A stretch of 64,000 bases of DNA from Escherichia phage nepoznato. This document shows positions 19,174 to 64,000 of this stretch, in pieces (the stretch's first letter is position 1; each line of letters begins with the position of its first letter). The stretch is from sequence record NC_052658.1. One strand, written 5' to 3'. The notes beneath the pieces were generated by a model. That model saw nothing but the letters and a program-made list of their open reading frames with translations, had not been told where the DNA came from and made no database searches. The position numbers were made by a program, and so were the translations under genes.

Positions 19174-19182
19174 GGAGTTATA

Positions 19183-19908: not shown

Positions 19909-19964
19909 TGTTGTAAGCCGCCCTTTACGGGCGGTAATGTGAGATGTATTAAATAGGAGGAAAC

Positions 19965-20843: not shown

Positions 20844-20847
20844 GTTC

Positions 20848-20876: not shown

Positions 20877-20905
20877 GCCTACCTACTTAATGAGGTAGGC
20901 TTTTT
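20877..20905 (+). terminator. intrinsic terminator
   Basis: Hairpin GCCTACCT-acttaatg-AGGTAGGC followed by TTTTT. Confidence 0.6.
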
Positions 20906-20915
20906 AGGAGGCGTT

Positions 20916-21125: not shown

Positions 21126-21137
21126 TTAGGGGGAAAT

Positions 21138-22256: not shown

Positions 22257-23212
22257 GCAGATTAACAGAAGAGCAGAAAGCAGATATCCTTAGTATGAGT
22301 GCAGAGGGTATGTCTTCTCGCAATATTGCAGCAATTGTTTTAGGTAGTCCAACAAGAAAAAGCACAGTGAACGATTTCCTTGCACGATTCGGAGCAAGTA
22401 AACAAGAGCCAGTTAAAAAGAAACAACCAGTTATTAAAATTATTGATGTTGAAACTGCACCAGAGATTGCATATACTTTCCGTCGATTCAAAGCCTTCAT
22501 TTCTCCAGATCAAGTAATTCGTAGGGGTTATTTGTTATCTTACTCTTCTGCTGACCTGTATACTGGTGAAGTGGAAGGTAAGAACTTGTCTTCTTATCCT
22601 CTTTTTGATATTGATCATACAGATGATTGGGAGCTTTGCCAAGATCTTTGGAACCTTCTAAATGAGGCAGATGTAGTTGTGGCACACAACGGATACAAGT
22701 TTGACCGTGCATATATTAACCAACGATTTGCATATCATGATATGGCTCCTCCTTCTAACTATGTAGTTGTTGATACATTGAAGGCAGCTAAGAAACAATT
22801 TGCACTTCCTTCCAACTCCCTTAAAGAAATGGGAGCATATTTCGAAACAGAAAGTGAAAAACTGGATAACGAGGGGTTCCCTTTATGGAAAGCATGTTGT
22901 GAAGGTGATCGTGATGCTTTTGAACGTATGCAGATTTACAATGACGGTGATGTTGTTTCACTCCGCGATTTGTATATGAAAATCCTTCCGTGGATTCCAC
23001 AACATCCTAACTTATCCGCTTATTATCCAGATGAGAAGGTCCGTTGTTCTCGTTGTGGCAGTGATCACGTTCACGTTGTTACTGGTAAGCAATACCACAC
23101 TGCGGTAAGTTCTTTCGATATCATTCGTTGTGAATCTTGCGGAGGTTTGTCACGTAGTAGAGCAAACACCAGATCCAAGGATAAACGAGCAGCAACTATC
23201 ATCGGAATCTAA
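22253..23212 (+). CDS. DnaQ-like 3'-5' exonuclease (DEDD family) with C-terminal zinc ribbon
   Basis: 319 aa; Exo I IIDVETAPE, Exo II VVAHNGYKFD, Exo III YNDGD; C-terminal CSRCGS...CESCGG. Confidence 0.55.
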   Translation: MSRLTEEQKADILSMSAEGMSSRNIAAIVLGSPTRKSTVNDFLARFGASKQEPVKKKQPVIKIIDVETAPEIAYTFRRFKAFISPDQVIRRGYLLSYSSADLYTGEVEGKNLSSYPLFDIDHTDDWELCQDLWNLLNEADVVVAHNGYKFDRAYINQRFAYHDMAPPSNYVVVDTLKAAKKQFALPSNSLKEMGAYFETESEKLDNEGFPLWKACCEGDRDAFERMQIYNDGDVVSLRDLYMKILPWIPQHPNLSAYYPDEKVRCSRCGSDHVHVVTGKQYHTAVSSFDIIRCESCGGLSRSRANTRSKDKRAATIIGI

Positions 23213-23218
23213 TAATAA

Positions 23219-23241
23219 GGGAGCTTCTTGCTCCCTTTTTT
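23219..23241 (+). terminator. intrinsic terminator
   Basis: Hairpin GGGAGC-ttctt-GCTCCC followed by TTTTTT. Confidence 0.65.
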
Positions 23242-23242
23242 A

Positions 23243-23271
23243 TTGACAAAAATTTGATATTAGTGTATACT
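23243..23271 (+). promoter_or_regulatory. sigma70-like promoter (TTGACA, 17 bp, TATACT)
   Basis: tTATTGACAaaaatttgatattagtgTATACT, followed by RBS AGGAGG and the ATG at 23299. Confidence 0.55.
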
Positions 23272-23298
23272 CTGCTAACCACAATAAAAGGAGGAAAT

Positions 23299-23526
23299 AT
23301 GAGCATTACATTAACAGGTAACGAAATTTTCGAACTGTTTGAAATGTTAGGTTTGAACTATACCATCGAGAAAGACCCAGATTTACTTGACGTTGAAATA
23401 ACAATTCAAGAAGATACAGCAATCTACAATAACGATGGTGATGTTATCTATCAAGGTAGGGTAGCTTATTATACAGACTACCCAGAAGAAGGCGCAGTAG
23501 GAATTCAGGAGGAAAATTATGTCTAA
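23299..23526 (+). CDS. hypothetical protein
   Basis: Track ORF 23254-23526 trimmed to the ATG at 23299, which follows an RBS and lies downstream of the promoter. Confidence 0.4.
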   Translation: MSITLTGNEIFELFEMLGLNYTIEKDPDLLDVEITIQEDTAIYNNDGDVIYQGRVAYYTDYPEEGAVGIQEENYV

Positions 23527-45092: not shown

Positions 45093-45572
45093 ATGTTTCA
45101 AGTAAATATCAATGTGCATAATAGTTACTCTGATTGTGAAACGTGTGGCTATAATTCATCTAATGTTGTTCGTATTAGTGGCGATTTAGGAGAAGCTTCT
45201 TTTGGAGAAGAAGCAAGTTGCTTTAGTGGTATGGATGCAGAATGGAATGATATTGCACATTGGTTGGTGAGCAAACTAAAAGAAAAAGAGAAACCCTTTC
45301 CTACTCTGCTTGATCGTTCCTTTGTAGAAGATGCAGGTAAAGCATATGCGGATTATGCTTATGCAGACGGGAAATATTTGGAAGATGATAAGGCTAACCA
45401 TTTGCTTTATGTTTATTATGAAGCTGAATCTGCCTACGATAATTATTATAGCATGTCTAACATCCTCCGTCTATTTGCAGAGTTTGATATTTATTTTGAA
45501 GTAGAATTTTCAGAAGATGATACTTACGAATATGATTCTTATGATCCATTTGAGGAGGACGAGGGTGAATGA
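45093..45572 (+). CDS. hypothetical highly acidic protein
   Basis: 159 aa rich in Asp/Glu/Tyr; C-terminus ...EDDTYEYDSYDPFEEDEGE. Confidence 0.4.
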   Translation: MFQVNINVHNSYSDCETCGYNSSNVVRISGDLGEASFGEEASCFSGMDAEWNDIAHWLVSKLKEKEKPFPTLLDRSFVEDAGKAYADYAYADGKYLEDDKANHLLYVYYEAESAYDNYYSMSNILRLFAEFDIYFEVEFSEDDTYEYDSYDPFEEDEGE

Positions 45573-46309
45573 TAGAACGAAAACCCTTACCAGATAGAGA
45601 TTACTTGTTATCAAGGTTTAGTGTGGAGAATGGTCGTCTTGTTTGGAAACCTAAACCTTCTACAACAAAAGAGAACAAAAGGTGGAATAGCAGATACGCA
45701 GGGAAGATTGCAGGGACTATTGATAAAGTTGGTTACTCTCATGTCAAAATAGATGGTATTGTATACTTGGAGCACAGAGTTTGTTTTAAAATGTACCATA
45801 ATTACTGTCCAGATGTTATAGATCATGATGATGGCAATAAGCTTAATAATGCGGAAAGTAATTTATTGGATAGTAACTATTTATTAAATAATAACAATAG
45901 ACATGTGGATGGGTTAGAAGGTATTTATGAAAAGGATGGTGTTTTTCTTTGGGTTATAAACTACAACCAAGAAACTTTCTCTGTTTCAGGTTTCAAAACT
46001 AAAGAGGAAGCTACTGTAGCTAGAGCTTTAGCAAAACAAGAAATTTTGAAAGGATCTTATATCAAAAAAGAAAAGAAGCGTATAGATAACACTTCAGGAT
46101 TAAGTTGTGTGTTTGTGGCAACAAGAGAGAGAACATTCTTTTTCAAGTTTGTGTTTGACAAGACCACGTATTGCAAATATGGTTTCAACGATCCAGAGAG
46201 ATGTGCTATAGCTCTGGAGAAGCTAAGGTTGAAGGTGATGAAAGAAAAATATAAACCTGCAAATAAAAGCATTTGCGAAAAACATAAGGAGGAGATTTAT
46301 GCCGCGTAG
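45569..46309 (+). CDS. HNH endonuclease
   Basis: 246 aa; ...DVIDHDDGNKLNNAESNLL HNH core. Confidence 0.6.
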   Translation: MIERKPLPDRDYLLSRFSVENGRLVWKPKPSTTKENKRWNSRYAGKIAGTIDKVGYSHVKIDGIVYLEHRVCFKMYHNYCPDVIDHDDGNKLNNAESNLLDSNYLLNNNNRHVDGLEGIYEKDGVFLWVINYNQETFSVSGFKTKEEATVARALAKQEILKGSYIKKEKKRIDNTSGLSCVFVATRERTFFFKFVFDKTTYCKYGFNDPERCAIALEKLRLKVMKEKYKPANKSICEKHKEEIYAA

Positions 46310-47430: not shown

Positions 47431-47440
47431 AATAAAGGCA

Positions 47441-47475
47441 CCCACTTGGGTGCCTTTCCTATTTTAGAGCGTCTC
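47441..47475. terminator. bidirectional intrinsic terminator at the convergence point
   Basis: Hairpin GGCACCC-actt-GGGTGCC with T-run downstream on the plus strand and A-run upstream. Confidence 0.6.
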
Positions 47476-50934: not shown

Positions 50935-51144
50935 TCAGTATAGATCTAATGTTAGACTAACAGTTATCCAACAAACAATAACAGTCCATATAACAAGTAA
51001 TGATCTACAAAATACATCCCATTCAAATACATTGTATGTTAACCATTCTCCCATCACAACAGAAGAACCTAACCAACATCCAACAATAACTATAATCCAA
51101 TAAAAGAATCCTACAGTGGAGTATATAGCAAAAGCTTTTAACAT
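50935..51144 (-). CDS. hypothetical small membrane protein
   Basis: 69 aa with two hydrophobic segments. Confidence 0.35.
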   Translation of the reverse strand: MLKAFAIYSTVGFFYWIIVIVGCWLGSSVVMGEWLTYNVFEWDVFCRSLLVIWTVIVCWITVSLTLDLY

Positions 51145-51701: not shown

Positions 51702-51905
51702 TTACTCATTACTACCTCCTTCAATGCTTTGTGCCGTACCGTCCCAAGACATTAGAATGTTTGCCAATAGTTCACGAGGCTCTTTAAACCAAACTTCCAT
51801 CTCATCTAGAATCTCGTCCGTGTCGTAAGTATAACCTGGAACACCAAGTTCACATTTCTTAAGGTAGCTTTCTAACCAACGGTGATAATTCTTAACCCCA
51901 TTCAT
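51702..51905 (-). CDS. hypothetical protein
   Basis: 67 aa ORF. Confidence 0.35.
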   Translation of the reverse strand: MNGVKNYHRWLESYLKKCELGVPGYTYDTDEILDEMEVWFKEPRELLANILMSWDGTAQSIEGGSNE

Positions 51906-52230
51906 ACTGTGCTACCTTTTCTTTTACCCAATTTACACGATCTTTGTCATAATGTTGAGTGCCAATGAAAAGAGCATTGTGGAAGCTTTCAGCACCGAAA
52001 GGGTAGATTGGATCTAAACCATCTTCTTCAAATAACATTTTTAGTCTCTTTGATGTAGATTTCTTAGTTTCTGAATCGTAGCTTGTGGTTATAAGCCAAT
52101 CTTCCAAACAACGACATAACCCTTGACGAGAATCCCAAGGAAAAACACAATCTCCGACAGGAGCTTGTTCAGCCCATTTCAACCAGCCTTTAAAAAAGTT
52201 ATACAATATGTAGTCTTCAGTGTAATACAT
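51892..52230 (-). CDS. paralog family member A (GLCxCL / [YL]PF / WVK[DE]R motif family)
   Basis: Track ORF 51892-52278 trimmed to the second Met at 52230, which follows RBS AAGGAGG and matches the starts of the paralogs. Confidence 0.45.
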   Translation of the reverse strand: MYYTEDYILYNFFKGWLKWAEQAPVGDCVFPWDSRQGLCRCLEDWLITTSYDSETKKSTSKRLKMLFEEDGLDPIYPFGAESFHNALFIGTQHYDKDRVNWVKEKVAQYEWG

Positions 52231-52245
52231 TAGCGCCTCCTTTAC

Positions 52246-52276
52246 GTATACAATAACACCCCGCAGAACGGGGTGC
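52246..52276 (-). terminator. intrinsic terminator/attenuator hairpin
   Basis: Minus-strand CACCCCG-TTCTG-CGGGGTG followed by TTATTGTAT; between CDS 52282-52893 and CDS 51892-52230. Confidence 0.45.
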
Positions 52277-52281
52277 AACTA

Positions 52282-52893
52282 TTATTTAATCTGTTTAAAA
52301 ATTTCGTTTGGAACGGTACCGTTTAAAATACCTTCTACGATCTCTTGTGCAGATGTGTAAGAGAGTCCAAAAGAAGCTACGCCTAAAATTGCCTCCTTCA
52401 AAGGATCTGGCAGGGGTTCAAAATTACCTGCAACAAAGCCACCTGCACAAGCAGCGCCTTCATCATCCCAGAAAACAACTGCTACATCGTTACCATGCGA
52501 AGTTGTGCGATGTGCAATAACTTCAACTTCTGTTCCTTCTTTAGGAACAGAATAAGAACTGTCCCAAGAATATCTTTCCAAATCAGGAACAAAGATAACC
52601 TTTTCACCTACTGGCGGCAGTTCACAACGATAATACCAAGAATTTTTTTCGTTCATTGTTTTATTTTCCTCCACGTCTTCAAAAGTAACGATCCAATCGT
52701 AGCCGTAAGAAAACGGATATTTTAGATCTAAAGAATAAGTTTGACCTAGATCGTCCTCAACAAGAACCATCCTGTCAAAGTTTGCGATGTTAGGATTATG
52801 TTTAATGACAGGGTATGTTTCCCCTACAGTAAATTGTCCCAAATGGTAAAGTTCATCTCTCCAAGTAATTTGGATATGAGTGCATTGAATCAT
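52282..52893 (-). CDS. hypothetical protein
   Basis: 203 aa ORF. Confidence 0.4.
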   Translation of the reverse strand: MIQCTHIQITWRDELYHLGQFTVGETYPVIKHNPNIANFDRMVLVEDDLGQTYSLDLKYPFSYGYDWIVTFEDVEENKTMNEKNSWYYRCELPPVGEKVIFVPDLERYSWDSSYSVPKEGTEVEVIAHRTTSHGNDVAVVFWDDEGAACAGGFVAGNFEPLPDPLKEAILGVASFGLSYTSAQEIVEGILNGTVPNEIFKQIK

Positions 52894-52897
52894 AAAA

Positions 52898-53170
52898 TCA
52901 CCCCCAAGAAATATTTATATATCTTACAATGTTTGCACTGTCTAAAGCCATGTTTGCACCACACCCACGCTCGCGCCAATAACTAACAATACCTTCACAG
53001 ATACTCTCTTGTATCTTCTTATCACTTGGCATTTCTAGTATAAGACTTGGGTTGTGGATGTTTATGTTATAATATCCTTCCTCTGCGGCTTGAGCTACCA
53101 ATTTACTTACTTTTTCAAAGTACGGGGAATTAGTGGCATCTGCCATTGCTTTTAAGGTTTGTCTATCCAT
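52898..53170 (-). CDS. hypothetical protein
   Basis: 90 aa ORF. Confidence 0.35.
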   Translation of the reverse strand: MDRQTLKAMADATNSPYFEKVSKLVAQAAEEGYYNINIHNPSLILEMPSDKKIQESICEGIVSYWRERGCGANMALDSANIVRYINISWG

Positions 53171-53568
53171 TATTCTGCCTCATCATAGAAGAAATCCAAC
53201 TCTTGTTCCAGTTGTTTAACTCGCTCCTTAACCCACTGTACACGTTTTTCATTAAACATGCAACGTTTTTCCTTACACTCTTGCTCAAAAGATTTTGCTG
53301 TGTTAAACGGGAAAGTTGTATCTAAACCAGCATTTTCAAAACTGGCTAATTGCATACCATAAACAGAATATGCTAAAGAATGATCGGCTCGAAATTCATC
53401 ACTTATATACATACGTAGACCTCGGCATAAGCCAACATCAGCGTAACCACTTTCTCGTGGAAAGAGACGGAGGTGTTCTAACCAATTATTATAGAAATCT
53501 AAAAGAATCCTCTTACACTTCAAATCAATTGTCATAAAAAGTTTCTCCTTCATCGAACAAGTTGGCAA
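53170..53568 (-). CDS. paralog family member B
   Basis: 132 aa; shares LLDFYNNWL...GLCRGL...FPF...RVQWVKERV with members A, C, D, E. Confidence 0.45.
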   Translation of the reverse strand: MPTCSMKEKLFMTIDLKCKRILLDFYNNWLEHLRLFPRESGYADVGLCRGLRMYISDEFRADHSLAYSVYGMQLASFENAGLDTTFPFNTAKSFEQECKEKRCMFNEKRVQWVKERVKQLEQELDFFYDEAE

Positions 53569-53935
53569 GATTGTTCACCGCAATTTGGGTGGAAAGAAGA
53601 CAACTGTTTGCAGACACATAAGCACGGGCTATTTTGTAAACATAAACTTTCGTATTGCAATCTTCTAAAATCGGAAGACTTTCATCGATAGCATCTATAA
53701 CACTAAACATCACATCTAAAACTTTAATTGTAAGTATTGTATCTATATCTTCGTAACCTTTTTCAATCCGACCTGAATAGAAAGTATAGTCCTCAACAGT
53801 TCGTCGTTTAAATTGGCGCATAAAATCAGAACCATCTGTAGCAGAATTGAACAAATTTTCAAAAAATACCTCCCATCCGGCAAAAAGGGCTGACAGCATG
53901 ATTAAGTGATCTACAGATTCATTTTCTTGTTTCAT
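53525..53935 (-). CDS. hypothetical protein
   Basis: 136 aa ORF. Confidence 0.4.
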   Translation of the reverse strand: MKQENESVDHLIMLSALFAGWEVFFENLFNSATDGSDFMRQFKRRTVEDYTFYSGRIEKGYEDIDTILTIKVLDVMFSVIDAIDESLPILEDCNTKVYVYKIARAYVSANSCLLSTQIAVNNLANLFDEGETFYDN

Positions 53936-53943
53936 ATCCTCTC

Positions 53944-54621
53944 CTATTTAATGTTCAATCTAGCACACAAGCGAGAAACAGTTTTAGCATCCCACTTACC
54001 ACCACGTGCTGTTGCGATTTTCTTACTATTGAATTTTTCAGCAATAGTTTTGTAAGGTGTATTTAAATCTCTAAGGATTTCTAAGCGTTCACGGAATGTC
54101 TCTGCAAAAGCATCTGCTTTAACAGAATTGTATTCCATTTTTCCTTTTCTACGTGCAGCGGCAGTTTTAGGATTAGCACTGCCTAATAAAACACCTTTGC
54201 TTTTTGCTACAGCAAGACCCTTTTTAATACGATCAGCAATACCTCTGACTTCTTGTTCAGCCAAAACAGACAGAAGCTGTATAACCATTTTATCTGCGTC
54301 TGGCATGATGGCTATCTTAACATCGATCATTTCTAGAAGAGTTGCTACGGAGGCGTTGTTACGACCCAAGCGGTCAACTTTAGCTACCAATAAAGTTGCT
54401 CCGGTAGCTTTACACATTTCAACCGCTTTAACCAGTTCCTTACGTTGCTTCCAATCGCCCTTACCAGAATAGTATTCAGAAAATTGACCAATAACTTCAG
54501 CATCAGGCACAGAGTCTAAGAAGTAACGGATATCGTTCTCTTGGCTCTCCATACCATATTGTGCCTCACCTTTTTTCTGTTTAGAAAGACGACTGTAAAC
54601 AACAAACTTTTTCATAACCAC
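53944..54621 (-). CDS. serine recombinase (resolvase/invertase family)
   Basis: 225 aa; catalytic-domain VVYSRLSKQ (YxRxS), VDRLGRN, LAEQEVRGIADRIKKG; C-terminal HTH-like segment; own promoter at 54645-54673. Confidence 0.65.
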   Translation of the reverse strand: MVMKKFVVYSRLSKQKKGEAQYGMESQENDIRYFLDSVPDAEVIGQFSEYYSGKGDWKQRKELVKAVEMCKATGATLLVAKVDRLGRNNASVATLLEMIDVKIAIMPDADKMVIQLLSVLAEQEVRGIADRIKKGLAVAKSKGVLLGSANPKTAAARRKGKMEYNSVKADAFAETFRERLEILRDLNTPYKTIAEKFNSKKIATARGGKWDAKTVSRLCARLNIK

Positions 54622-54644
54622 TCCTAAACCATTGCTGTATTCTC

Positions 54645-54673
54645 ACTTTACAAAACGAATAAACACTTGTCAA
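54645..54673 (-). promoter_or_regulatory. sigma70-like promoter (TTGACA, 17 bp, TAAAGT) for the serine recombinase gene
   Basis: Minus-strand reading CCTTGACAAGTGTTTATTCGTTTTGTAAAGT, then RBS TAGGAG and the ATG at 54621. Confidence 0.5.
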
Positions 54674-54685
54674 GGTATTTATTAT

Positions 54686-54898
54686 TTACAGCCATTCTAC
54701 TTTTAAGCAGTATTCTTCGACATGTTGTTTACGCTTGTTTTTGTCTATGTAAGTGTATTCAACAAATGTCCCAAGATAATCCTTGTCCACATTGTGTTGG
54801 CTATTAATTGGACATTTAGTACGACAAACCCGTTGCCACTGACGAAGAATTACGGCTTTGTTTTTAGGATCAAAGGGATGAGGGTAATGTGCCTTCAT
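54686..54898 (-). CDS. hypothetical protein
   Basis: 70 aa ORF. Confidence 0.35.
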   Translation of the reverse strand: MKAHYPHPFDPKNKAVILRQWQRVCRTKCPINSQHNVDKDYLGTFVEYTYIDKNKRKQHVEEYCLKVEWL

Positions 54899-55222
54899 TC
54901 ACGCCTCCTGTTTTAGTCGAAAAATATTTTGAATAACGAGAGATGTATAGTTATCACTTAGTCCCATAAGTTCTACTTCCAAGTTTCGAATATCTTCCAC
55001 CGTAGGAGGATATGTTGGTAAAAATGCTTGAGCATTACCAGATCCAACCTCATTGCTGTAAGCAGTTGTAAAATTGTAAGATACAAAACATGAAACACCT
55101 TTTTGTCGGTACCCGATTAATCGACGAATACACCAGATAAGAGCCAAACCTATGAGAACACCTCCTAAACCAGCTAACAAGAAGGATAAGTTCATAATAG
55201 CTTCGTTAACAACTGCTTGCAT
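54899..55222 (-). CDS. hypothetical membrane protein
   Basis: 107 aa; N-terminal transmembrane segment (LLAGLGGVLIGLALIWCI). Confidence 0.35.
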   Translation of the reverse strand: MQAVVNEAIMNLSFLLAGLGGVLIGLALIWCIRRLIGYRQKGVSCFVSYNFTTAYSNEVGSGNAQAFLPTYPPTVEDIRNLEVELMGLSDNYTSLVIQNIFRLKQEA

Positions 55223-55232
55223 TCTTTTCTCC

Positions 55233-55580
55233 TTAGTTGTGTAAACCCAAATGTGCTACAACTTCTCTACGATAAGATAACTGCATAGCGATTTTATAGC
55301 CAGGATGAAAACCATTTACATCAATGTCATCAAACCAAACCTCAAATGAACCGTGTTTAAGAGTCATTAAGTTAATATACCATTCAATAGTATAATGATC
55401 GTTAGCAATACCTTCGATGTAAAATTCTCGACAACAGTGAGATAAATCTTCACTTGTTTCACGTTTCCAGTCTTTGATAGCACCCTTCTCTTTGGCTTTA
55501 TTCAGAATGTGGATCAGGTCTTCAACTTGCATATTCTCTCCTTTAGTTCCAACTAATAATAATGTGTTTGATAATCCCAA
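55233..55580 (-). CDS. hypothetical protein
   Basis: 115 aa ORF. Confidence 0.35.
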   Translation of the reverse strand: MGLSNTLLLVGTKGENMQVEDLIHILNKAKEKGAIKDWKRETSEDLSHCCREFYIEGIANDHYTIEWYINLMTLKHGSFEVWFDDIDVNGFHPGYKIAMQLSYRREVVAHLGLHN

Positions 55581-56097
55581 AAATACTGTGCTCTGCGGTT
55601 GCCAATGTTACATCCAAACCTTTTGCACGTAGCATTGTAGCTACAACATTTGCCCCTCTTTTCTGTTCACTTATCTGTTCATAAGAAGAAGGGTTATTGC
55701 ACAAACCAAAACTGGAAGGTTCAAAGTATTTTTCAAACTTCCCTTGTTCCGCACAATCTTCAATCTCTAATAGAACGGCGTCTACCATTTCAGTAAAATG
55801 GGAATTTGCTTGCAGTGCTTTATTACGCAGTTTATCACGTAAACTTCCCGTAGATTCTTCCTGCTCTTCTGTCTGTCCATCTTCACAGAAAGGATGAAGT
55901 TCAGCCCAGTCCCAAGCATCTCCTTCTAAAGCAAATAGAGTGTTGTAATTGAAGAAAGTGCAGCGCGGATATTCCCCGTTGAAAGAATCTTTCAGCAGAA
56001 TATATTTCTTACCGTTTGCATGGAAGAGTTCTCCTTTGATAACCTTACCTACAAGGATATCACTGTTAGTGGAACGGGTGCAAATAAACTTTTTCAT
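55543..56097 (-). CDS. hypothetical protein
   Basis: 184 aa ORF after RBS AGGAGAAAA; downstream of promoter 56127-56155. Confidence 0.4.
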   Translation of the reverse strand: MKKFICTRSTNSDILVGKVIKGELFHANGKKYILLKDSFNGEYPRCTFFNYNTLFALEGDAWDWAELHPFCEDGQTEEQEESTGSLRDKLRNKALQANSHFTEMVDAVLLEIEDCAEQGKFEKYFEPSSFGLCNNPSSYEQISEQKRGANVVATMLRAKGLDVTLATAEHSIFGIIKHIIISWN

Positions 56098-56126
56098 GAT
56101 TTTCTCCTCTTTGTTTCGATGAGATG

Positions 56127-56155
56127 ATTATGACAAAGACAGATCCTTCTGTCAA
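56127..56155 (-). promoter_or_regulatory. sigma70-like promoter (TTGACA, 17 bp, CATAAT) with inverted repeat in spacer
   Basis: Minus-strand reading AAATAGTTGACAGAAGGATCTGTCTTTGTCATAAT. Confidence 0.5.
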
Positions 56156-56159
56156 CTAT

Positions 56160-56381
56160 TTATTTCCATTCCCCTTGGTGTTCTTTGATCTCATAAGAGT
56201 AGTATTCGAACATGCTCATACAAACCACACCAGACATTTCTAAACAAAGAGGTTTACTATTATAAAAGGCACTTATCATTCTTCCAGCTTTATCTGCTGA
56301 CTCTTTAGTATCACATCCACAAACTGTTCTCACCCAAGGATCAGGGCCATCATATTTAAGACGCACAATCCACATGATCAT
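56160..56381 (-). CDS. hypothetical protein
   Basis: 73 aa ORF. Confidence 0.35.
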   Translation of the reverse strand: MIMWIVRLKYDGPDPWVRTVCGCDTKESADKAGRMISAFYNSKPLCLEMSGVVCMSMFEYYSYEIKEHQGEWK

Positions 56382-56605
56382 TCTTCCATCTCAAACCATT
56401 CAGGGAACACTTTGCGGAAGACCCGCGTGTTTTCTAAGAGAAATTCCAACTCTTTTTCCAAATCTGCGTTCCAACCGTTTATTTTAACACGGATTGCCAA
56501 TGCACTTGCACGGCGACTCAATTCTTGACAGATTGGATCACGCAGAACTATTGAGTCATAAAACTGACAAACAGCCTCAAGTTCATACCAGTTATAATCC
56601 GACAT
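56378..56605 (-). CDS. hypothetical protein
   Basis: 75 aa ORF. Confidence 0.35.
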   Translation of the reverse strand: MSDYNWYELEAVCQFYDSIVLRDPICQELSRRASALAIRVKINGWNADLEKELEFLLENTRVFRKVFPEWFEMEE

Positions 56606-56931
56606 TATTCATCCTCCTCTGCAATACGATCTCTTACCCAATTAATCCTGTCCACGTTCAGGTGACATACCTCTGCATCTGATTCTAAGACATATGCATC
56701 GTAGTTCTCATTGAAAGGGAGTGCTTGACTCAACCCTTTGTGGTAAAACTGTGCGTGCATTTCATCTGACAAGGTTGTTATAAGGGGATTGTAATTACCT
56801 CTGTGCACATAATCGAACAAGTTGGCACACAAACCACAATCCCGCCGAAAAGGTTTACCATCAGGAGCACCAACATCAATCCATGCTAGATAAATTTTAT
56901 AAAACTCCATCAACCTTGTGCTTGTTTTCAT
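56605..56931 (-). CDS. paralog family member C
   Basis: 108 aa; EFYKIYLAWI...GLCANL...LPFNENYD...RINWVRDRI. Confidence 0.45.
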   Translation of the reverse strand: MKTSTRLMEFYKIYLAWIDVGAPDGKPFRRDCGLCANLFDYVHRGNYNPLITTLSDEMHAQFYHKGLSQALPFNENYDAYVLESDAEVCHLNVDRINWVRDRIAEEDE

Positions 56932-57169
56932 TTAGCCACCTCGTTAGTTTTTCTTGCTCTTTGTTTGCGCGTTCTAAGCTTCTGAACTTTAAACAGAGGG
57001 AACGAGAATCCCTACCCATGCACAAGCTTTCATCTAAGCTGTGCTCCCCAACCAACCAAAGAGAGTATGTTTGAACATCTAACCCATAGTTTCTGTCTTT
57101 CCATAATCTCACCCCAAGAACATCAAAAGGAGCTTCCGCGACTAAAGAAAGAAACCGATCTTTATTCAT
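56897..57169 (-). CDS. hypothetical protein
   Basis: 90 aa ORF. Confidence 0.35.
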   Translation of the reverse strand: MNKDRFLSLVAEAPFDVLGVRLWKDRNYGLDVQTYSLWLVGEHSLDESLCMGRDSRSLCLKFRSLERANKEQEKLTRWLNENKHKVDGVL

Positions 57170-57231
57170 ATTACACCACCTTGCTCACGTTGATAATGTA
57201 TGTATACCATACATAAAATAAATGTCAAGGC

Positions 57232-57432
57232 TTATCGACACAGATAGTTGTAACGATCTGCTTTATCCTCGGCTTCAGCAAAGTCAGCAATCAAGGAAGT
57301 TTTGAGTTCTTCCAACTCTTTCACCCAAGAGTCGTAATCGTTCTGTGTTTCTCCAATAGTTTGGAGAAAACAATCGTCGTAGCCAATAGACATGGCTAAC
57401 TCGATAATACGTTCCAGTTTTTCTTCCATCAC
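57232..57432 (-). CDS. hypothetical protein
   Basis: 66 aa ORF. Confidence 0.35.
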   Translation of the reverse strand: MMEEKLERIIELAMSIGYDDCFLQTIGETQNDYDSWVKELEELKTSLIADFAEAEDKADRYNYLCR

Positions 57433-57798
57433 TTCTCTCCTTCTACAGACTTCTGTTTAACATAAAAGTAAGCACCACGAGCAAGATACAAATCATGTTC
57501 AATATCGCTCACAGGAAAACCATCTGGATTTTTAAAACCGTCTTCTACAGCCAAAATGAGAGATCGTAAACTGATAGCTAACAACTCCATTTGATCTTGT
57601 AGTTTTCTATTTTCTGCATAAAGGTTTTTGCATTTTTGTTCTGCATTTTTCCATTGTTCTAATGCATGATCATAGTTTCGCATAAGGATAGCTTTTTCTT
57701 GTTCACGTTTAAAAGTTTCTTCACAAATGAAACCCGTGCCTAAACCAGTTTCTTCATCTTTGACAAACACTTCAACAAAATCTTTAGACATATTATCT
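57429..57798 (-). CDS. hypothetical protein
   Basis: Track ORF 57429-57923 trimmed to the ATG at 57798 after RBS AGGAGAT (MSKDFVEVF...); avoids overlap with the upstream gene. Confidence 0.35.
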
Positions 57799-58056
57799 CC
57801 TATTTGCTTTTGGATACTCCCAACCCTCTGGGAGATCTTCTTTACACATCCACTCAAAAGGCCAGCGACAATAACTGTGCCACTTTCCATCGAGATACAA
57901 GCAATCTTCATCCACTGGTCCACAAGGGTTGATAACTACAACACACCCTTTTGCTCGCCAATATTGAACTATTTCAGGGTAAAAACAAGAAACGTCGGTC
58001 CACTCCCAAATACGTTCATCATTCAAACGGTATGCTGCTGGCAATGTCTCTTTCAT
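57793..58056 (-). CDS. hypothetical Cys/Trp-rich protein
   Basis: 87 aa ORF. Confidence 0.35.
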   Translation of the reverse strand: MKETLPAAYRLNDERIWEWTDVSCFYPEIVQYWRAKGCVVVINPCGPVDEDCLYLDGKWHSYCRWPFEWMCKEDLPEGWEYPKANRR

Positions 58057-58060
58057 ATTA

Positions 58061-58507
58061 TTAAACCTCTGTCAAAGAGAAACGCCAATCCTTACTACTA
58101 CCTACACCAAGGAAGATATAGTCTCCGGTACTAACGGAATATCTCCAAGCGGGAATCCAATCAGGAATCTCTGGCTTATGGCTGTAGCCATAACGCTCGC
58201 CACTCGAATCTGTTGCAATATAATTAACAAATTCAGGAACCTCTAAAGTTTCACCTTGATACTCTACACGCTTGAAGCCATCTTCCACTTCTTTCTCACC
58301 TTCTACCAGAAGGGCAAGAAGTTTGATGTGAGGGCAAGTGAAATCTTGTCCTGGATAACGTGAACGGATATCTGTTAACAATGCGACTACAGCATCCGAT
58401 AACTCTTTATAATCCTCATATCTTACAAATGTACCTTCTGTCGGATCATCAGGACACAAACGCCAAACATCGTTGCAGTTTACAGCATAATGTCTCATTT
58501 TAGTCAT
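58061..58507 (-). CDS. hypothetical protein
   Basis: 148 aa ORF. Confidence 0.4.
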   Translation of the reverse strand: MTKMRHYAVNCNDVWRLCPDDPTEGTFVRYEDYKELSDAVVALLTDIRSRYPGQDFTCPHIKLLALLVEGEKEVEDGFKRVEYQGETLEVPEFVNYIATDSSGERYGYSHKPEIPDWIPAWRYSVSTGDYIFLGVGSSKDWRFSLTEV

Positions 58508-58579
58508 AAATACCTCTATTCATATATTAAGAAACCCAAAATAATAACCAGAACAATGAAAATGATAGTCTCTATCATA

Positions 58580-58828
58580 TTACCAAGCTGCCACTACCCC
58601 AGTGCGTAGGGTTTCTTCATACCCCCAAATATCTGCACTAAGAGCAACAGCAGTCCATTCTGGGGACCAAGTAAAACCCAACAGATCTGTCATCTTTTCA
58701 GCATCTTTTTTAATGCTTTCTTCATCAGAGAAAACACGGTAAAGATCTTCCAACTCTTTTGTAATCTCTGCACGTTCTTCTTCGGTAATCGGTGTTCCTA
58801 CACGATCAGTAGTAAAAACATTCAGCAT
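58580..58828 (-). CDS. hypothetical protein
   Basis: 82 aa ORF. Confidence 0.35.
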   Translation of the reverse strand: MLNVFTTDRVGTPITEEERAEITKELEDLYRVFSDEESIKKDAEKMTDLLGFTWSPEWTAVALSADIWGYEETLRTGVVAAW

Positions 58829-58837
58829 AATATCCCC

Positions 58838-59236
58838 TTATCGTTGCGTACAATCAGCTTCTAGAGTAAGAACATTCGTTATTGTTTTATCATTTTTTAG
58901 AAATGCAAACCAAGCCAAAGTGTCTCGATACTCTGTGCGCATCATCACAACTTCGGTAGTGCCAATAAACTGCTGTGAACCGTACATAGAACTTCCATCT
59001 TTACTCTTTCCTCCTGTGTTTTGAAGAATACCGCTCATCAAAGCACCACCCGAATTTTTAAGGATAAAAGAGTTATCTTTATTAATGACAACAGAAGCCA
59101 TTTTCTTAGGACCAGAAATCACTTCACCTTTCAGATTTTTAACAACTACATCTGATACACACTCATAAACTTGAGACGCATTTGCTGTTCCAAGAGATGC
59201 AATGAGTAACAATAAACCTACGATAATCTTTTTCAT
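58838..59236 (-). CDS. secreted/periplasmic protein with signal peptide
   Basis: 132 aa; MKKIIVGLLLLIASLGTANA then SQVYE (signal peptidase I-type site, no lipobox). Confidence 0.4.
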   Translation of the reverse strand: MKKIIVGLLLLIASLGTANASQVYECVSDVVVKNLKGEVISGPKKMASVVINKDNSFILKNSGGALMSGILQNTGGKSKDGSSMYGSQQFIGTTEVVMMRTEYRDTLAWFAFLKNDKTITNVLTLEADCTQR

Positions 59237-59331
59237 ATAAACTCTCCTCTTTGTTTACCCGATGCGCCCCTGTTGGGCGGAAAGGGTTGTACGCAAAATT
59301 TTTAGCTCCAATCGTCGGGTGTCCCGACTCC

Positions 59332-59538
59332 TTACGCTTTTAATGTTTTAACAGAATGACAAGCTTTGCAAACCATAACCGGAACAAGTTCGTCTCCACT
59401 ATCCGCATAAATCACTGTTTTCTTCATTCTGCCACCACATGAACAATACTCTGTATGATCCGCTGGAATATTAAATATTCCGTAATCACTTTCATACTGT
59501 TTCTTACATATGGACACTGCTTTTGTAAAACAAGACAT
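59332..59538 (-). CDS. hypothetical zinc-ribbon protein
   Basis: 68 aa with CSCGG...CKACH. Confidence 0.35.
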   Translation of the reverse strand: MSCFTKAVSICKKQYESDYGIFNIPADHTEYCSCGGRMKKTVIYADSGDELVPVMVCKACHSVKTLKA

Positions 59539-59540
59539 AC

Positions 59541-59762
59541 CTACTCCGAAAGAACATTCACTTCGTCAGAGAAAAATACGTAATCACAACCTTCCCAAAC
59601 ATCTTCTTCAAACCACTCCCATCCCTCAACTTTGGACATTTCTTCTATCGTAACAAAGAATGTTGTCATATCATCACTAACAAGATGTGCTTCAACAACA
59701 AAAGGAATCTGAACATTCTCAAAACCAACATAACCCAATACATCACAAACTCTAATTTTCAT
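59541..59762 (-). CDS. hypothetical protein
   Basis: 73 aa ORF. Confidence 0.35.
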   Translation of the reverse strand: MKIRVCDVLGYVGFENVQIPFVVEAHLVSDDMTTFFVTIEEMSKVEGWEWFEEDVWEGCDYVFFSDEVNVLSE

Positions 59763-59763
59763 A

Positions 59764-59964
59764 TTATGCTCCTTTGTAGATTATGTTGGTGCGTTCACAC
59801 TCTGCCACCAGCAAGCGATTAGCAATGTTGTCCATAGGAACATCAATCTCTACGCTCCAGGCATTGATATACACTTCTTCAATCTTTGCTCCAAGCATTT
59901 GTGCGATCAGAGCAACAGCCCCAGCATATTCAAGTTTAATCTCAATTACCATTTTGCACCTCAA
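59764..59964 (-). CDS. hypothetical protein
   Basis: 66 aa ORF. Confidence 0.35.
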   Translation of the reverse strand: MRCKMVIEIKLEYAGAVALIAQMLGAKIEEVYINAWSVEIDVPMDNIANRLLVAECERTNIIYKGA

Positions 59965-59966
59965 GG

Positions 59967-60203
59967 TTATTTATCTTGCTTATATCTTACAAGGCGATCA
60001 CACTCCAGGTCAAGAAATTTCTCCGCATTTCGTTCATGTTTGAGCACAATACATTGTTCTTTCAAGTCTGTAGCTCTTTGCTGCGCGGCTCCTGGGTCAA
60101 AATCCCAAAGCCATGCGGCGAAAAGAACAACCATAACAATTGCCAAGAAAACAAACACTATAGGCATTGCACATCCTCCTGTGTAGCATGATCTTTTACC
60201 CAT
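59967..60203 (-). CDS. hypothetical membrane protein
   Basis: 78 aa; one transmembrane segment (IVFVFLAIVMVVLFAAWLW). Confidence 0.35.
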   Translation of the reverse strand: MGKRSCYTGGCAMPIVFVFLAIVMVVLFAAWLWDFDPGAAQQRATDLKEQCIVLKHERNAEKFLDLECDRLVRYKQDK

Positions 60204-60472
60204 TTTATACGGGCAGCATTCAAATGCAATAGCCCGTTTCTTTGTGCAAAATCATATTTAAACCAGTCTCCGTCATCAAACGGGTATTCTTCAGACAACC
60301 CTGCTTCTCGAAATTGCATTTGCATTTCATAATTTAGGTCATCATAACCACCAGACCAAAGATAGAGGCAACTACATAATCCTTTATCATGCCAGAAAGG
60401 ATTATTATCTGGAGCACCAGCTAATAGCCAGTTATGATATGCCTGATAAAATTCTTTAAGTTCCTCTGACAT
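60158..60472 (-). CDS. paralog family member D
   Basis: 104 aa; EFYQAYHNWL...GLCSCL...YPFDD...RIKWVKDH. Confidence 0.45.
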   Translation of the reverse strand: MSEELKEFYQAYHNWLLAGAPDNNPFWHDKGLCSCLYLWSGGYDDLNYEMQMQFREAGLSEEYPFDDGDWFKYDFAQRNGLLHLNAARIKWVKDHATQEDVQCL

Positions 60473-60649
60473 TTAACCTCCTGTATGCAGTGTTGAAAGA
60501 TACGCAGCAAAAGCATTCTCGGCTGTTTTCACCTCCTCTTCAAGATCTTCACGCTCTGCTGGCGTTAATGCATTCCGCACAGCAGCGTCTGCTTCTCGGA
60601 TTTTTCTTACTAAACGTGAAACATCTTTCAATTGTTGAAAAGTAGCCAT
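60473..60649 (-). CDS. hypothetical small helical protein
   Basis: 58 aa (below track cutoff), MATFQQLKDVSRLVRKIREADAAV...; RBS GGAGAAAG. Confidence 0.3.
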   Translation of the reverse strand: MATFQQLKDVSRLVRKIREADAAVRNALTPAEREDLEEEVKTAENAFAAYLSTLHTGG

Positions 60650-60664
60650 AATCTTTCTCCTGTT

Positions 60665-60949
60665 TTAGTTAGTGTCACGCCATTCGGCAATCTCTTCGGC
60701 TAAACGATCACAAGAATCGAAAGCCACTTTACCTTTAGTCTGATTTTCATGTCGTACTTCCTTCAATGCGAGTAATGCGTTCACCAGATTATCAACACCT
60801 TGATCATCCAGTGCGATAACATCGAAGTTAAACCCTGTATCAGTTGGGACTTTACGTTTTATGGTGTAATAGTCTCCTTCATGACGTTCAACATACGCGT
60901 ATGGGTAACTGCTGTTTGGATCATGTTTCACGCGAATAGATGTTTTCAT
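60665..60949 (-). CDS. hypothetical protein
   Basis: 94 aa ORF. Confidence 0.35.
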   Translation of the reverse strand: MKTSIRVKHDPNSSYPYAYVERHEGDYYTIKRKVPTDTGFNFDVIALDDQGVDNLVNALLALKEVRHENQTKGKVAFDSCDRLAEEIAEWRDTN

Positions 60950-60964
60950 GTTTTGTTCTCCTCT

Positions 60965-61216
60965 TTAATCAAACCAGTTGTATTCGGAAGGGTAACGAGC
61001 GTAGTTTGGCTTGTACCCCAGTCTTTTCATCTTAACAGACATACGAGTGAAGCCAAAAGTTGTTTTGCCCTTAGACATAAACTTCTTCCCACTCTTCATT
61101 GGCTTCTTAGGGTTTTTGATCGTCTGGTGTAACGCTCGCGCAAGCCACAAAGTGTATGCGCTAGGCACTTGATTAACTTTCATCTTGTTACCTTTCATCA
61201 TTTCACCTCGGACCAA
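60965..61216 (-). CDS. hypothetical basic protein
   Basis: 83 aa Lys-rich ORF. Confidence 0.35.
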   Translation of the reverse strand: MVRGEMMKGNKMKVNQVPSAYTLWLARALHQTIKNPKKPMKSGKKFMSKGKTTFGFTRMSVKMKRLGYKPNYARYPSEYNWFD

Positions 61217-61497
61217 TCAATAGTGATCCACTCATATGCTCCGTTTAGGTCCATTTCTTTATAAACAACAAGCCCACGCTCACGAAGAATTGCTACTGCT
61301 TCATCCATCCATTTCACCTGATTGTAGATTTCCCCTGGGTGGGTAGGGGAATTATCCAGACCAAAATCGGATGGCGTGAAATTCCTTGAAGAGTTTCCCG
61401 CTCGTGCTTCAGCAAAACAAGTCTCGATCACTTCTTCAACAGGGAAGTTGAAGGAAGCTTCTTTTGCAATACGGCGTAACTGTTCAGTCAGATTCAT
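61198..61497 (-). CDS. hypothetical protein
   Basis: 99 aa ORF. Confidence 0.35.
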   Translation of the reverse strand: MNLTEQLRRIAKEASFNFPVEEVIETCFAEARAGNSSRNFTPSDFGLDNSPTHPGEIYNQVKWMDEAVAILRERGLVVYKEMDLNGAYEWITIDWSEVK

Positions 61498-61524
61498 CTT
61501 ATTCTCCTTTCGTTGTGTGAAACA

Positions 61525-61962
61525 TTATAACAGATCTAATGCTTTCAACTCTTCTTTCAATGATTCAAGCAGGTCACATTCAACGTCAATCAGAGATAAC
61601 AAGTGACCAACAATGCCTTCCAGATGTTGATACTCACTATAACTTATAAATTCAGAATTGTAAACAGAAACATCCTTAGTTTCTTTCACAACTTCCCCCG
61701 CAGACACGCAAATAAAAAAGTTACGCTCTCCGCGAGCTAACAATATCTCCCAACTTCTGAACGGATACTGTCCAGCCTCAATAATATCCCCGCTGTCCAA
61801 TAAAGTCAATGAGCAAACAGACCCTGATTCACTAACATCTTCGACGCGGAAACAAGACCCGTCAATCAAAGCCGCCATTTTGAAATTTTCATCAGAGATC
61901 ATAGAGAAAGCTTCACATGCAGCTTTACTTTTGAAACAGTAAACAGCATTAACTTTAAACAT
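61525..61962 (-). CDS. hypothetical protein
   Basis: 145 aa ORF. Confidence 0.4.
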   Translation of the reverse strand: MFKVNAVYCFKSKAACEAFSMISDENFKMAALIDGSCFRVEDVSESGSVCSLTLLDSGDIIEAGQYPFRSWEILLARGERNFFICVSAGEVVKETKDVSVYNSEFISYSEYQHLEGIVGHLLSLIDVECDLLESLKEELKALDLL

Positions 61963-62050
61963 AACATTCCCCTTTTAAACAAAAGACACACCGATGGTAG
62001 CAACAACCAGACGCTTATAAACTTCAACCTCTTCTGTAGGATTAGCCATT

Positions 62051-62503
62051 TTATGCTCTGCCTAGTTCATCATACCATTTCAAAGCGTCTTTTGGAAGCA
62101 TACCAAAATCTTCTTTTAGTTCTTTTTCAATCTCTTCTTTCAGTTCATTCAACACTTGCAGTTGGCGTATTTTCTTCCGTAACAAAGCTTCCCGTTCACT
62201 GTTGCTTGGTGTTACTTCATTTCCTGCTATCATCACATATCCTGTCGGAGAGCAAGGAAGATAGTCATCAATATCTTCTAAAGCATAACGATAATTGGAG
62301 TCCAGGAAGTTTACATGCACACGATCACATCCAAACAAGGTAGCACGGAATACTTCGTAACGAGTTTCAGATAGGATATGTTGCACACAGACAATACCTA
62401 CATCATTTTGCACTGCACAGGTTACATCCAACAAACTTGAATGTTCTTTGACATAATCTGCAACACATTGCACATGTGCTTCCAGTATAGATAGTTGTTT
62501 CAT
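62051..62503 (-). CDS. hypothetical protein
   Basis: 150 aa ORF. Confidence 0.4.
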   Translation of the reverse strand: MKQLSILEAHVQCVADYVKEHSSLLDVTCAVQNDVGIVCVQHILSETRYEVFRATLFGCDRVHVNFLDSNYRYALEDIDDYLPCSPTGYVMIAGNEVTPSNSEREALLRKKIRQLQVLNELKEEIEKELKEDFGMLPKDALKWYDELGRA

Positions 62504-62748
62504 TTTCTACCTCCCCATAATGCTAACATTTTATTGAAAATGGAAACGCGTCGTGCGCGAGATGCCATATCATAATTCATTCTTTCCGTCTCTGCAAGAA
62601 ATTGATCTACTGTAATCAACGCTTTTGTCTTCTCTTTCAGAGTTTGCATATTCATCCATTCACATTCAGAGTACCAATTATCGAAATACAAACTATCAAG
62701 AAGATCCATTGCTGCTTCATTCTGTTGTGGTGTGATCATTGCACACAA
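62500..62748 (-). CDS. hypothetical protein
   Basis: 82 aa ORF. Confidence 0.35.
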   Translation of the reverse strand: MCAMITPQQNEAAMDLLDSLYFDNWYSECEWMNMQTLKEKTKALITVDQFLAETERMNYDMASRARRVSIFNKMLALWGGRK

Positions 62749-62751
62749 CCT

Positions 62752-62982
62752 TTAATAAACAATTTCATATTCGTGAGGAAAGAAAACATAATCTTCTCCT
62801 TCTCGTGCATCTATCTCGTCCCAAAACCATTCCTGCACTTCCATCATCTTCGAGAATCGCACATGAGCAAGTCCACTGTATTCCACCGTAGCTTCCAGCA
62901 CAAGTGGAAATTTTGCATGTGCCAAGCCTTTATAACCACCATCATTCTCAATACGAATTTTCATGCGTTTCATGTTATGCAT
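62752..62982 (-). CDS. hypothetical protein
   Basis: 76 aa ORF. Confidence 0.35.
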   Translation of the reverse strand: MHNMKRMKIRIENDGGYKGLAHAKFPLVLEATVEYSGLAHVRFSKMMEVQEWFWDEIDAREGEDYVFFPHEYEIVY

Positions 62983-63184
62983 CCTTCAGACCCTTAATAA
63001 AGTAACGACCAACCGGATTCCCTCGGAAGTATTCGTTAATGAAATCGATAACACACGTTTCACTGCCTGTCACAACGGACGGCTTACAGTTTTGGAATTC
63101 TACAGCTACACGGCTGGCTTTAGCCAGTGCTTGCACACGTGTAGGATTAGTCAAGAACATTGTGACAGTTTTCAAATTCTTCAT
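62975..63184 (-). CDS. hypothetical protein
   Basis: 69 aa ORF. Confidence 0.35.
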   Translation of the reverse strand: MKNLKTVTMFLTNPTRVQALAKASRVAVEFQNCKPSVVTGSETCVIDFINEYFRGNPVGRYFIKGLKDA

Positions 63185-63242
63185 TTCATCTCCTCATTAA
63201 CTGTTTGTTATGCGCGGTATGCAAACTATCATACAAACATCT

Positions 63243-63617
63243 TTATTCAATGCAAGCATTATTTGCATCTTCAATTCTGTCTTTCACCCACTGAAGACGT
63301 AACGTGTTGGTATGACACGCCAAGTTTATACACTCTGAAAGGTAATCCATGCAATCTGCATTGAACGGAAGATTGTAGTCCAGCCCTGCACATGTAAATT
63401 GTTTCCTCATTTCATATTTCAAACGGTCTAACAAATGATCACGCCATCTTCTATCTTCTTCTCTAGTTGTCTCACCAACAAAATCATCTACGTAATCTAC
63501 CAGACAACCACATAAGCCACTCGTTGTGCGATTCATTGCAGGATAGTTGGCAATCCATGCTTTATAGAAGCGAAGCAATGTTGCACTACTCAACGGAACA
63601 TTTTTACTCTCTTGCAC
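63243..63617 (-). CDS. paralog family member E
   Basis: 124 aa; RFYKAWIANYP...GLCGCL...LPFNADCMDY...RLQWVKDRI. Confidence 0.45.
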   Translation of the reverse strand: MQESKNVPLSSATLLRFYKAWIANYPAMNRTTSGLCGCLVDYVDDFVGETTREEDRRWRDHLLDRLKYEMRKQFTCAGLDYNLPFNADCMDYLSECINLACHTNTLRLQWVKDRIEDANNACIE

Positions 63618-63803
63618 GATAATCTCCTCTCATCATTAGCCATCTTTCATGGCAATCATCAATCACCAACATCATACGATCAATCTTCGGCAATTACAAT
63701 CGAATTATCATAGGGGATTCCTATCAATTATCCCATATATACTGATTATTTTTGACACCCCACTCTTGTATAAAAAGTAACCCAAAATATCTACGGGGAG
63801 AGA

Positions 63804-63998
63804 TTATTTCGGGACACCCTGTTTCATGGCAATCATGGCAAGAATATCTAATAGAATCAATATCATATGGCAAAAATCATGGCGTATACGTAAGAAGTGC
63901 TTAACGCGAATTTTCGGGCCGTCAGGTCCACGCAGCGACAATTCCCAAATATCATGCGAATGAGAATAATTATCATTCGTATTCAATGACTTATGCAA
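63804..63998 (-). CDS. hypothetical protein
   Basis: 64 aa ORF at window edge inside a repeat-containing non-coding stretch; weak support. Confidence 0.25.
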   Translation of the reverse strand: MHKSLNTNDNYSHSHDIWELSLRGPDGPKIRVKHFLRIRHDFCHMILILLDILAMIAMKQGVPK

Positions 63999-64000
63999 GG

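Follow-up and report, generated by a model that had tools for sequence, protein, structure and literature searches.

Among the small genes of the 64,000-nucleotide (nt) stretch of Escherichia phage nepoznato analyzed here (NC_052658.1; henceforth the window), five encode similar proteins of 104 to 132 amino acids (aa), which raises the question of what this family is and why a phage should keep it in several copies. The window is 96-97% identical to phAPEC8-like coliphages (Phapecoctavirus, Stephanstirmvirinae), myoviruses of approximately 150 kb, and the minus-strand small-gene block that holds the five genes runs from about 47.5 kb to the window end, as judged from GC skew and the orientation of open reading frames (ORFs). 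In all public records inspected, the five genes, here termed paralogs A to E, are annotated as "hypothetical protein". An earlier note, made from the letters of the window, had proposed that they form a family shaped by duplication and diversification, as in host-takeover or anti-defence families. Here, we conclude with high confidence that these genes belong to a real, uncharacterized, phage-specific family of early or accessory location, and we weigh the tentative reading that it constitutes an expandable set of early host- or defence-binding proteins.

Five diverged paralogs of one domain family

The five ORFs listed in the earlier note are all present on the minus strand. They are given below with their E-values against the PHROG profile phrog_2510 and in a leave-one-out search with profile hidden Markov models (HMMs):

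51892-52230, minus strand: paralog A, 112 aa, start ATG 52230; phrog_2510 E 5.7e-27; leave-one-out HMM E 3e-15
53170-53568, minus strand: paralog B, 132 aa from TTG 53568; phrog_2510 E 5.3e-26; leave-one-out HMM E 1.3e-19
56605-56931, minus strand: paralog C, 108 aa, the copy used for structure modelling; phrog_2510 E 4.8e-32; leave-one-out HMM E 5.9e-24
60158-60472, minus strand: paralog D, 104 aa; phrog_2510 E 6.4e-29; leave-one-out HMM E 3.3e-21
63243-63617, minus strand: paralog E, 124 aa, GTG start; phrog_2510 E 2.3e-25; leave-one-out HMM E 5.2e-18

In the leave-one-out searches, a profile built from four copies was run against all 670 six-frame ORFs of the window. The omitted copy was recovered each time (E 3e-15 to 5.9e-24), and the top non-family ORF reached at most 9.6 bits. 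By BLASTP, 10 of 10 paralog pairs align over most of their length, with 24-40% identity and 28-71 bits, and a profile search of the six-frame ORFs revealed no sixth copy in the 64-kb window. The five ORFs are genuine, diverged, and old paralogs of a single-domain family. The ordered motif signature by which they had been recognized is genuine in its order, but the regular expressions proposed for it were slightly too strict: paralog C carries GLCANL instead of GLC.[CG]L, paralog A has YPFG and a C-terminal WVKEK, and paralog E has RL.WV.

The start of paralog A at ATG 52230 agrees with public annotation, where relatives carry a 339-nt hypothetical coding sequence. Directly upstream of this ATG, inside a longer TTG-initiated ORF, lies a GC-rich hairpin (52276-52256, minus strand) with a T-run; between 52282-52893 and paralog A, it could serve as a terminator or, alternatively, in RNA processing or stability. 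Read from TTG 53568, paralog B overlaps the upstream gene by 44 nt; public records use ATG 53535 (366 nt, 121 aa), which is probably the correct start. The GTG of paralog E is preceded, across a 6-nt spacer, by a strong Shine-Dalgarno sequence (GAGAGGAG), and the protein is cysteine-rich (7 of 124 residues).

Conserved residues and the predicted fold

All five copies match phrog_2510, a family of unknown function, with E-values of 2e-25 to 5e-32 at profile positions of approximately 5-113; weaker matches were obtained to phrog_6418, phrog_27059, and phrog_2176. The window copies are single-domain; the phrog_2510 profile spans 219 positions, so that tandem or extended proteins are apparently among its members. 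When the five copies were scanned against Pfam, NCBIfam, and PADLOC, nothing rose above threshold, and no weak match recurred when 122 diverse members were compared with Pfam at E<=1. The earlier view that this is not a named domain thus holds for Pfam, NCBIfam, and PADLOC, but needs amending in that the family is already catalogued as PHROG 2510, without functional annotation, and includes gp3 of phage N4.

An exhaustive profile search of 1.84 billion cluster representatives retrieved 1,723 proteins at E<=1e-3, of which 733 passed E<=1e-10, corresponding to a family of at least 1,700 clusters at 50% identity. Its phages infect Escherichia, Salmonella, Klebsiella, Erwinia, Pectobacterium, Pseudomonas, Burkholderia, Delftia, Achromobacter, Ralstonia, and Rhizobium. 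Single-domain proteins of 95-135 aa form the majority. Approximately 10% of members comprise two or three domains in tandem, an example being a 344-aa protein of BcepSaruman and BcepSauron, jumbo phages of Burkholderia. In a few members, the domain is joined to DUF551, to transmembrane helices, or to uncharacterized N-terminal regions. We considered these fusion partners as clues to function and discarded them, as they amount to DUF551 and other uncharacterized regions. No source searched attaches a functional name to any member.

Across an alignment of 225 domains, the signature in paralog-C numbering comprises L6, F9-Y10, W16, G32-L33-C34, (N36)-L37, E56, Q60-F61, A64-G65-L66, P71-F72-N73, Y79, E82, H89, N91, R94, and W97-V98, with C34 conserved in 92% and R94 in 99% of the domains. 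A 122-sequence alignment with its own numbering shows no variation at Cys35, Pro72, Phe73, or Arg95, and >=90% of its sequences keep Q61 and N92.

AlphaFold2 modelled paralog C from a 25-sequence alignment with a pLDDT of 93.7 and a pTM of 0.86, predicting helices at residues 5-19, 34-42, 50-64, 77-85, and 93-107. A Foldseek search of this model against 350,542 PDB chains gave a best match of E 2.6 and TM 0.28, and sequence-profile searches of the PDB with the 25- and 122-sequence alignments found nothing. Because both types of search came back empty, no solved structure resembles the domain, which is apparently a five-helix fold of about 105 aa without a solved relative. In a library of predicted viral structures, the fold recurs at E<1e-3 in 18 entries named "Uncharacterized protein", from phages of Rhizobium, Burkholderia, Achromobacter, Delftia, Pectobacterium, Klebsiella, Erwinia, Shigella, and Escherichia, with weaker matches (E 0.02-0.8) in Pseudomonas phages. 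A natural two-domain member, modelled to test for a pseudo-dimer arrangement, reached a pLDDT of 91.8 and a pTM of 0.67.

Two structural hypotheses suggested by composition were rejected. Cysteine-richness pointed to a structural zinc-binding domain, but only C34 is general, and the candidate ligands show no family-wide covariation in the 225 domains. The paralog E-type pattern C34/C36/C83/C88/H89 occurs in 14 of these 225 and could form a subgroup-specific metal site. Acidity suggested a DNA mimic with anti-restriction activity of the Ocr or ArdA type, but it is not family-wide (median domain pI 5.65, with 17% of domains above 8), and no structural match was found; the whole small-gene block is acidic, not this family alone.

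How the conserved positions are read determines which role is favored. If the domain is a stable helical scaffold, most of them would be fold determinants: an aromatic and leucine core, the G-L-C start of a helix, the P-F-N turn, N91 as a helix cap, and R94 paired with E56 and E82. The main rival, which we consider rather unlikely, is that the proteins are enzymes or small-ligand binders, e.g., sponges for a nucleotide or metabolite of host immune signalling, in which C34 and R94 together with Q60, N91, E56, E82, and Y79 would make up an active or binding site, with the substrate or ligand differing from paralog to paralog. The near-invariance of C34 and R94 and the conservation of Q60 and N91 in both the 122- and the 225-member alignment are consistent with such a site, as is the presence of ten conserved polar positions (C34, N36, E56, Q60, N73, Y79, E82, H89, N91, and R94) within 105 residues, kept across phages of alpha-, beta-, and gamma-proteobacteria with C34 and R94 essentially invariant. 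The model predicts C34 at the N-terminus of helix 2, and helix N-termini are a frequent position of reactive cysteines. Known phage sponges are likewise small early proteins, and tandem forms exist in the family. The enzyme or ligand-binding alternative is weakened by His89, when this residue is counted as not conserved, by the missing covariation of the candidate metal ligands, and by the lack of a structural match to known enzymes or to the solved nucleotide-signal sponges (Acb2, Tad1, Tad2, and others); nine copies in one genome would also be odd for such a protein.

Genome position, turnover, and candidate roles

By tblastn, the domain occurs in 236 phage records. One member is N4 gp3 (EF056009.1, bases 1214-1528, 104 aa), which scored 62.8 bits against a 25-sequence profile and 85.8 bits against a 122-sequence profile, both seeded from the window copies. 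N4 gp3 shares with these copies the domain, the length, the GLC...PFN...CHLN..R..W signature, and the status of an early gene; it differs in being single-copy in N4 and is approximately 31% identical to paralog C. It is located among gp1-gp14, upstream of the genes for N4 RNA polymerase II (RNAP II) and close to the left genome end, in the early region that is transcribed by the injected virion RNA polymerase (PMC4496689). No published function for N4 gp3 was found in the literature searched.

Placement in other phages follows a similar pattern. The domain lies within the first ca. 4 kb of the genome in the N4-like phages Gutmeister and Axy10 and in the T7-like or other podophages RSB1, RHph_TM38, and RHEph02. 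A temperate Salmonella prophage carries a fused member in its early-right accessory region, and in two further phage contigs, members sit in runs of small ORFs adjoining replication modules, once beside an Ead/Ea22-like gene. This neighbourhood recalls the Ead/Ea22- and DUF551-type accessory proteins of lambdoid and other enterobacterial phages: the family domain adjoins an Ead_Ea22 gene in an early-region accessory position and is fused to DUF551 in P0177 of the phage Av-05 group. Ead/Ea22 and DUF551 are, however, domains separate from the family and themselves of unknown function. Judged by gene position, the family is thus an early-region or accessory one in N4-like, T7-like, phi92-like, and temperate phages alike.

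Early placement would also suit a role inside the phage's own program, with the proteins acting, as cofactors or regulators, on the early-to-middle transcription switch or on replication and not on host targets. If PHROG numbers follow family size, the family is much more widely distributed than the neighbouring genes of the block, most of which fall into high-numbered PHROGs as opposed to phrog_2510. In N4, moreover, gp3 comes directly after gp1 and gp2, the cofactors of RNAP II (PMC4496689). We nevertheless regard a phage-internal role as improbable: core regulators are normally single-copy and universal, whereas here genomes hold one to nine copies, and many near-identical genomes lack one copy or another; the domain is also known from accessory regions of temperate prophages and from fusions to accessory modules, and the structure search detected no DNA-binding fold.

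In the window, the gene closest to the genome end is paralog E, which is preceded by the following element:

63618-64000: non-coding leader of 383 bp upstream of paralog E; no ORF; sigma-70-like promoter matches; 20-nt direct repeat; in relatives, adjacent to the terminal repeat

The promoter-like sites lie on the minus strand at 63832-63803, 63774-63745, and 63699-63671, and the two full copies of the repeat, at 63640-63659 and 63817-63836, have a spacing of 177 nt; there is also a third, partial copy. On the minus strand, the repeat includes TTGCCA, which resembles a -35 element. The leader is 95-99% conserved in 66 records, annotated in none of them, and duplicated in some end-arranged records; it may contain early promoters with a common upstream element, adjoining the terminal repeat. 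Several relatives' records start approximately 160-230 bp past the window end, which, together with the conserved 383-bp leader, identifies paralog E as the first gene of the block, counted from the terminus. The curated phi92 record shows the homologous block of small genes starting straight after a 343-bp left direct terminal repeat (DTR-L 1-343). Phi92-like phages retain only the final 51 nt of paralog E at 94-100% identity (phi92 566-616 versus window 63243-63293), positioned slightly inward of the left terminal repeat, upstream of gp001. The remnant is what a gene replacement at this terminus-proximal locus has left behind.

Copy number varies widely among related phages. Counted with the HMM on six-frame ORFs of fetched loci, it amounts to:

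This window: 5
vB_Ec-G1: 5
phAPEC8_ev052: 6
phiWec188: 9, at 7326-23389
Metagenomic relative: 8 domains in 7 ORFs, at 11-11904, including one natural tandem two-domain protein
phi92: 2
N4: 1
Salmonella prophage: 1

Individual copies also come and go. A 13-kb block was matched in 177 phage records, among which paralog D is present in 60, paralog C in 64, and paralog E in 115 (78 at full length). At 90% identity, the proteins fall into 21 distinct clusters for E (47-98% identity), nine for C, three for B, and one each for A and D. Within paralog E, the C-terminus is approximately 90% conserved and residues 41-60 only about 45%, so that variation is centered on helix 2-helix 3 and leaves the family signature intact; paralog E is a mosaic, highly variable locus. 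Paralogs of 24-40% identity, one to nine copies across related phages, patchy presence, and the mosaic E locus bear out the proposed duplication and diversification.

Comparison with close relatives gave ratios of non-synonymous to synonymous substitution rates (dN/dS) of 0.17 for A, 0.08 for B, and 0.01-0.11 for D, with A, B, D, and E together ranging from 0.01 to 0.17; for paralog C the ratio was 0.38-1.0, with few changes to count. Measured against close relatives, purifying selection acts on every copy, with values similar to those of neighbouring genes, and positive selection was rejected on this ground. Because the copies are under purifying selection, their diversity stems from gene gain, loss, and cassette-like replacement rather than from rapid point substitution.

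Presence/absence polymorphism and mosaicism would equally be expected of neutral or selfish passengers, i.e., a domain spread by recombination in hyperplastic early regions with little effect on fitness, and the relaxed dN/dS of paralog C, again from few changes, fits such an origin. The passenger explanation is contradicted by the purifying selection on A, B, D, and E and by the strict signature kept across 1,723 representatives in distant phage lineages; strong ribosome-binding sites and a compact, confidently predicted fold also speak against it, and we hold it to be very improbable.

Terminus-proximal or early placement, accessory distribution, copy-number dynamics, the mosaic E locus, and modular fusions are the reasons why we lean, at somewhat less than even confidence, towards an expandable set of early host- or defence-binding proteins. 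On the predicted scaffold, the variable helix 2-helix 3 loop and the surface of helix 4 would bind host proteins. The paralogs, expressed right after infection, would each neutralize or redirect a different host factor, most plausibly a component of anti-phage defence or of host housekeeping machinery, and the composition of the array would track the host strains met by the phage. The early or terminus-proximal placement and the gain-and-loss dynamics agree with the earlier suggestion of a host-takeover or anti-defence family, but no homology to known anti-defence proteins was found and dN/dS among close orthologs is ordinary (0.01-0.4).

Several observations weigh against this host-binding proposal. 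Functional data for any member were not found in the literature on phrog_2510, N4 gp3, CRISPRi-ART screens, or Phapecoctavirus transcriptomes. The ten conserved polar positions exceed the needs of a pure scaffold and could therefore mark a catalytic or ligand site, and the structural role assigned to them above would follow from helix periodicity only. Close orthologs show no excess of non-synonymous changes, and the acidity typical of DNA mimics is no trait of the family. Early expression in phAPEC8-like phages is suggested by genome position, and no transcriptome of a Phapecoctavirus was found in the literature searched.

Known systems offer partial parallels. T7 gp0.3 (Ocr) and the T5 pre-early genes are, like the family, small, adjacent to a terminal repeat, read inward from the genome end, accessory, and variable among relatives. 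These proteins differ from the family in that they show no sequence or structural similarity to it, and acidity does not characterize its members. The only anti-defence gene reported for this genus is the anti-TIR gene atd1, described from Phapecoctavirus and Justusliebigvirus (PMC11724313), i.e., from the same phage genera as the family, and its product Atd1 is a MazG-like (p)ppGpp pyrophosphatase (bioRxiv 10.1101/2022.06.09.495361). Identity with Atd1 or MazG was rejected, as the family has no MazG match in Pfam and no EXXE motif among its conserved positions. Since Atd1 is MazG-like and the family matches neither MazG nor any other Pfam entry, the two are unrelated.

The surrounding block and significance of the family

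The minus-strand block is divided from the adjoining plus-strand block by a bidirectional terminator at 47434-47457, a perfect hairpin with a 10-bp stem that scores as a terminator on both strands and coincides with the convergent block junction and a sign change in GC skew. Twenty neighbours of the paralogs were scanned against PHROGs: 18 belong to families of unknown function, 60665-60949 gave no match, and the remaining neighbour encodes a serine recombinase/DNA invertase (53944-54621, minus strand; phrog_125, E 1e-32), which is two genes away from paralog B, with 53525-53935 in between, and is wrongly labelled "ABC transporter ATP-binding protein" in many public records. A 38-nt inverted repeat (52915-52952 and 55051-55088) flanks the recombinase and paralog B. 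At 74% complementarity it is too weak for an invertible segment to be called around the recombinase.

Some records carry the label "goF mRNA metabolism modulator" on the neighbours 61525-61962 and 62051-62503 (minus strand) or on genes next to them. We rejected it as a name for the family, for it sits on neighbours and has no backing in PHROGs, which places these two ORFs in the unknown-function families phrog_22975 and phrog_14944; for the latter reason it looks like annotation carry-over.

Two other paralogous groups, both distinct from A to E, were noted. In the block, the C-terminal ca. 100 aa of a 184-aa protein (55543-56097, minus strand) match a 99-aa protein (61198-61497, minus strand) with 37.7 bits, and the pair cross-matches reciprocally to phrog_37387 and phrog_15686, both of unknown function. 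Elsewhere in the window, a third set comprises 4560-5240 and 8462-8980 (minus strand), which match each other with 88.6 bits, and 45569-46309 (plus strand), which they match with 32 bits. Two members of this set flank a cluster of nine tRNA genes at 8101-10544 (minus strand; Met, Ile, Pro, Gly, Thr, Asn, Ser, Arg, and Met). By eye, the ORFs 58838-59236, 54899-55222, 59967-60203, and 50935-51144 (minus strand) are predicted to encode one clear N-terminal signal peptide (MKKIIVGLLLLIASLGTANA) and several small proteins with transmembrane helices.

As its sequences are present in public genomes and already clustered as PHROG 2510, the family is not new at the sequence level; no Pfam entry, solved structure, or published account of its multi-copy arrays was found. 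In function, its closest parallel is the class of small accessory proteins, early and variable, that virulent phages encode at the leading genome end, and of this class it would be an unusually widespread example. Uncharacterized paralogous early-gene families are common in large phages, and nothing about this one is mechanistically surprising so far. It is nonetheless a good, testable lead, because N4 gp3 offers a single-copy model and natural copy-number variants exist. Even if the copies are ordinary accessory proteins, their description provides a clean annotation of a recurrent, unannotated phage domain.

A bolder proposal, which we consider unlikely though worth stating, is that the domain represents a previously unrecognized fold serving phages of Proteobacteria as a general-purpose early effector scaffold, with up to nine paralogs each disabling a different immune or housekeeping target of the host, or that its invariant Cys and Arg capture or modify a conserved host molecule. 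Either version would make it a new anti-defence or host-takeover family of very wide distribution, in which N4 gp3 is a member amenable to study. Therapeutic-type phAPEC8-like coliphages carry five to nine copies, compared with the single gp3 of the model phage N4; if these are indeed anti-defence or takeover factors, paralog content could help to explain and predict differences in host range among near-identical therapeutic phages.

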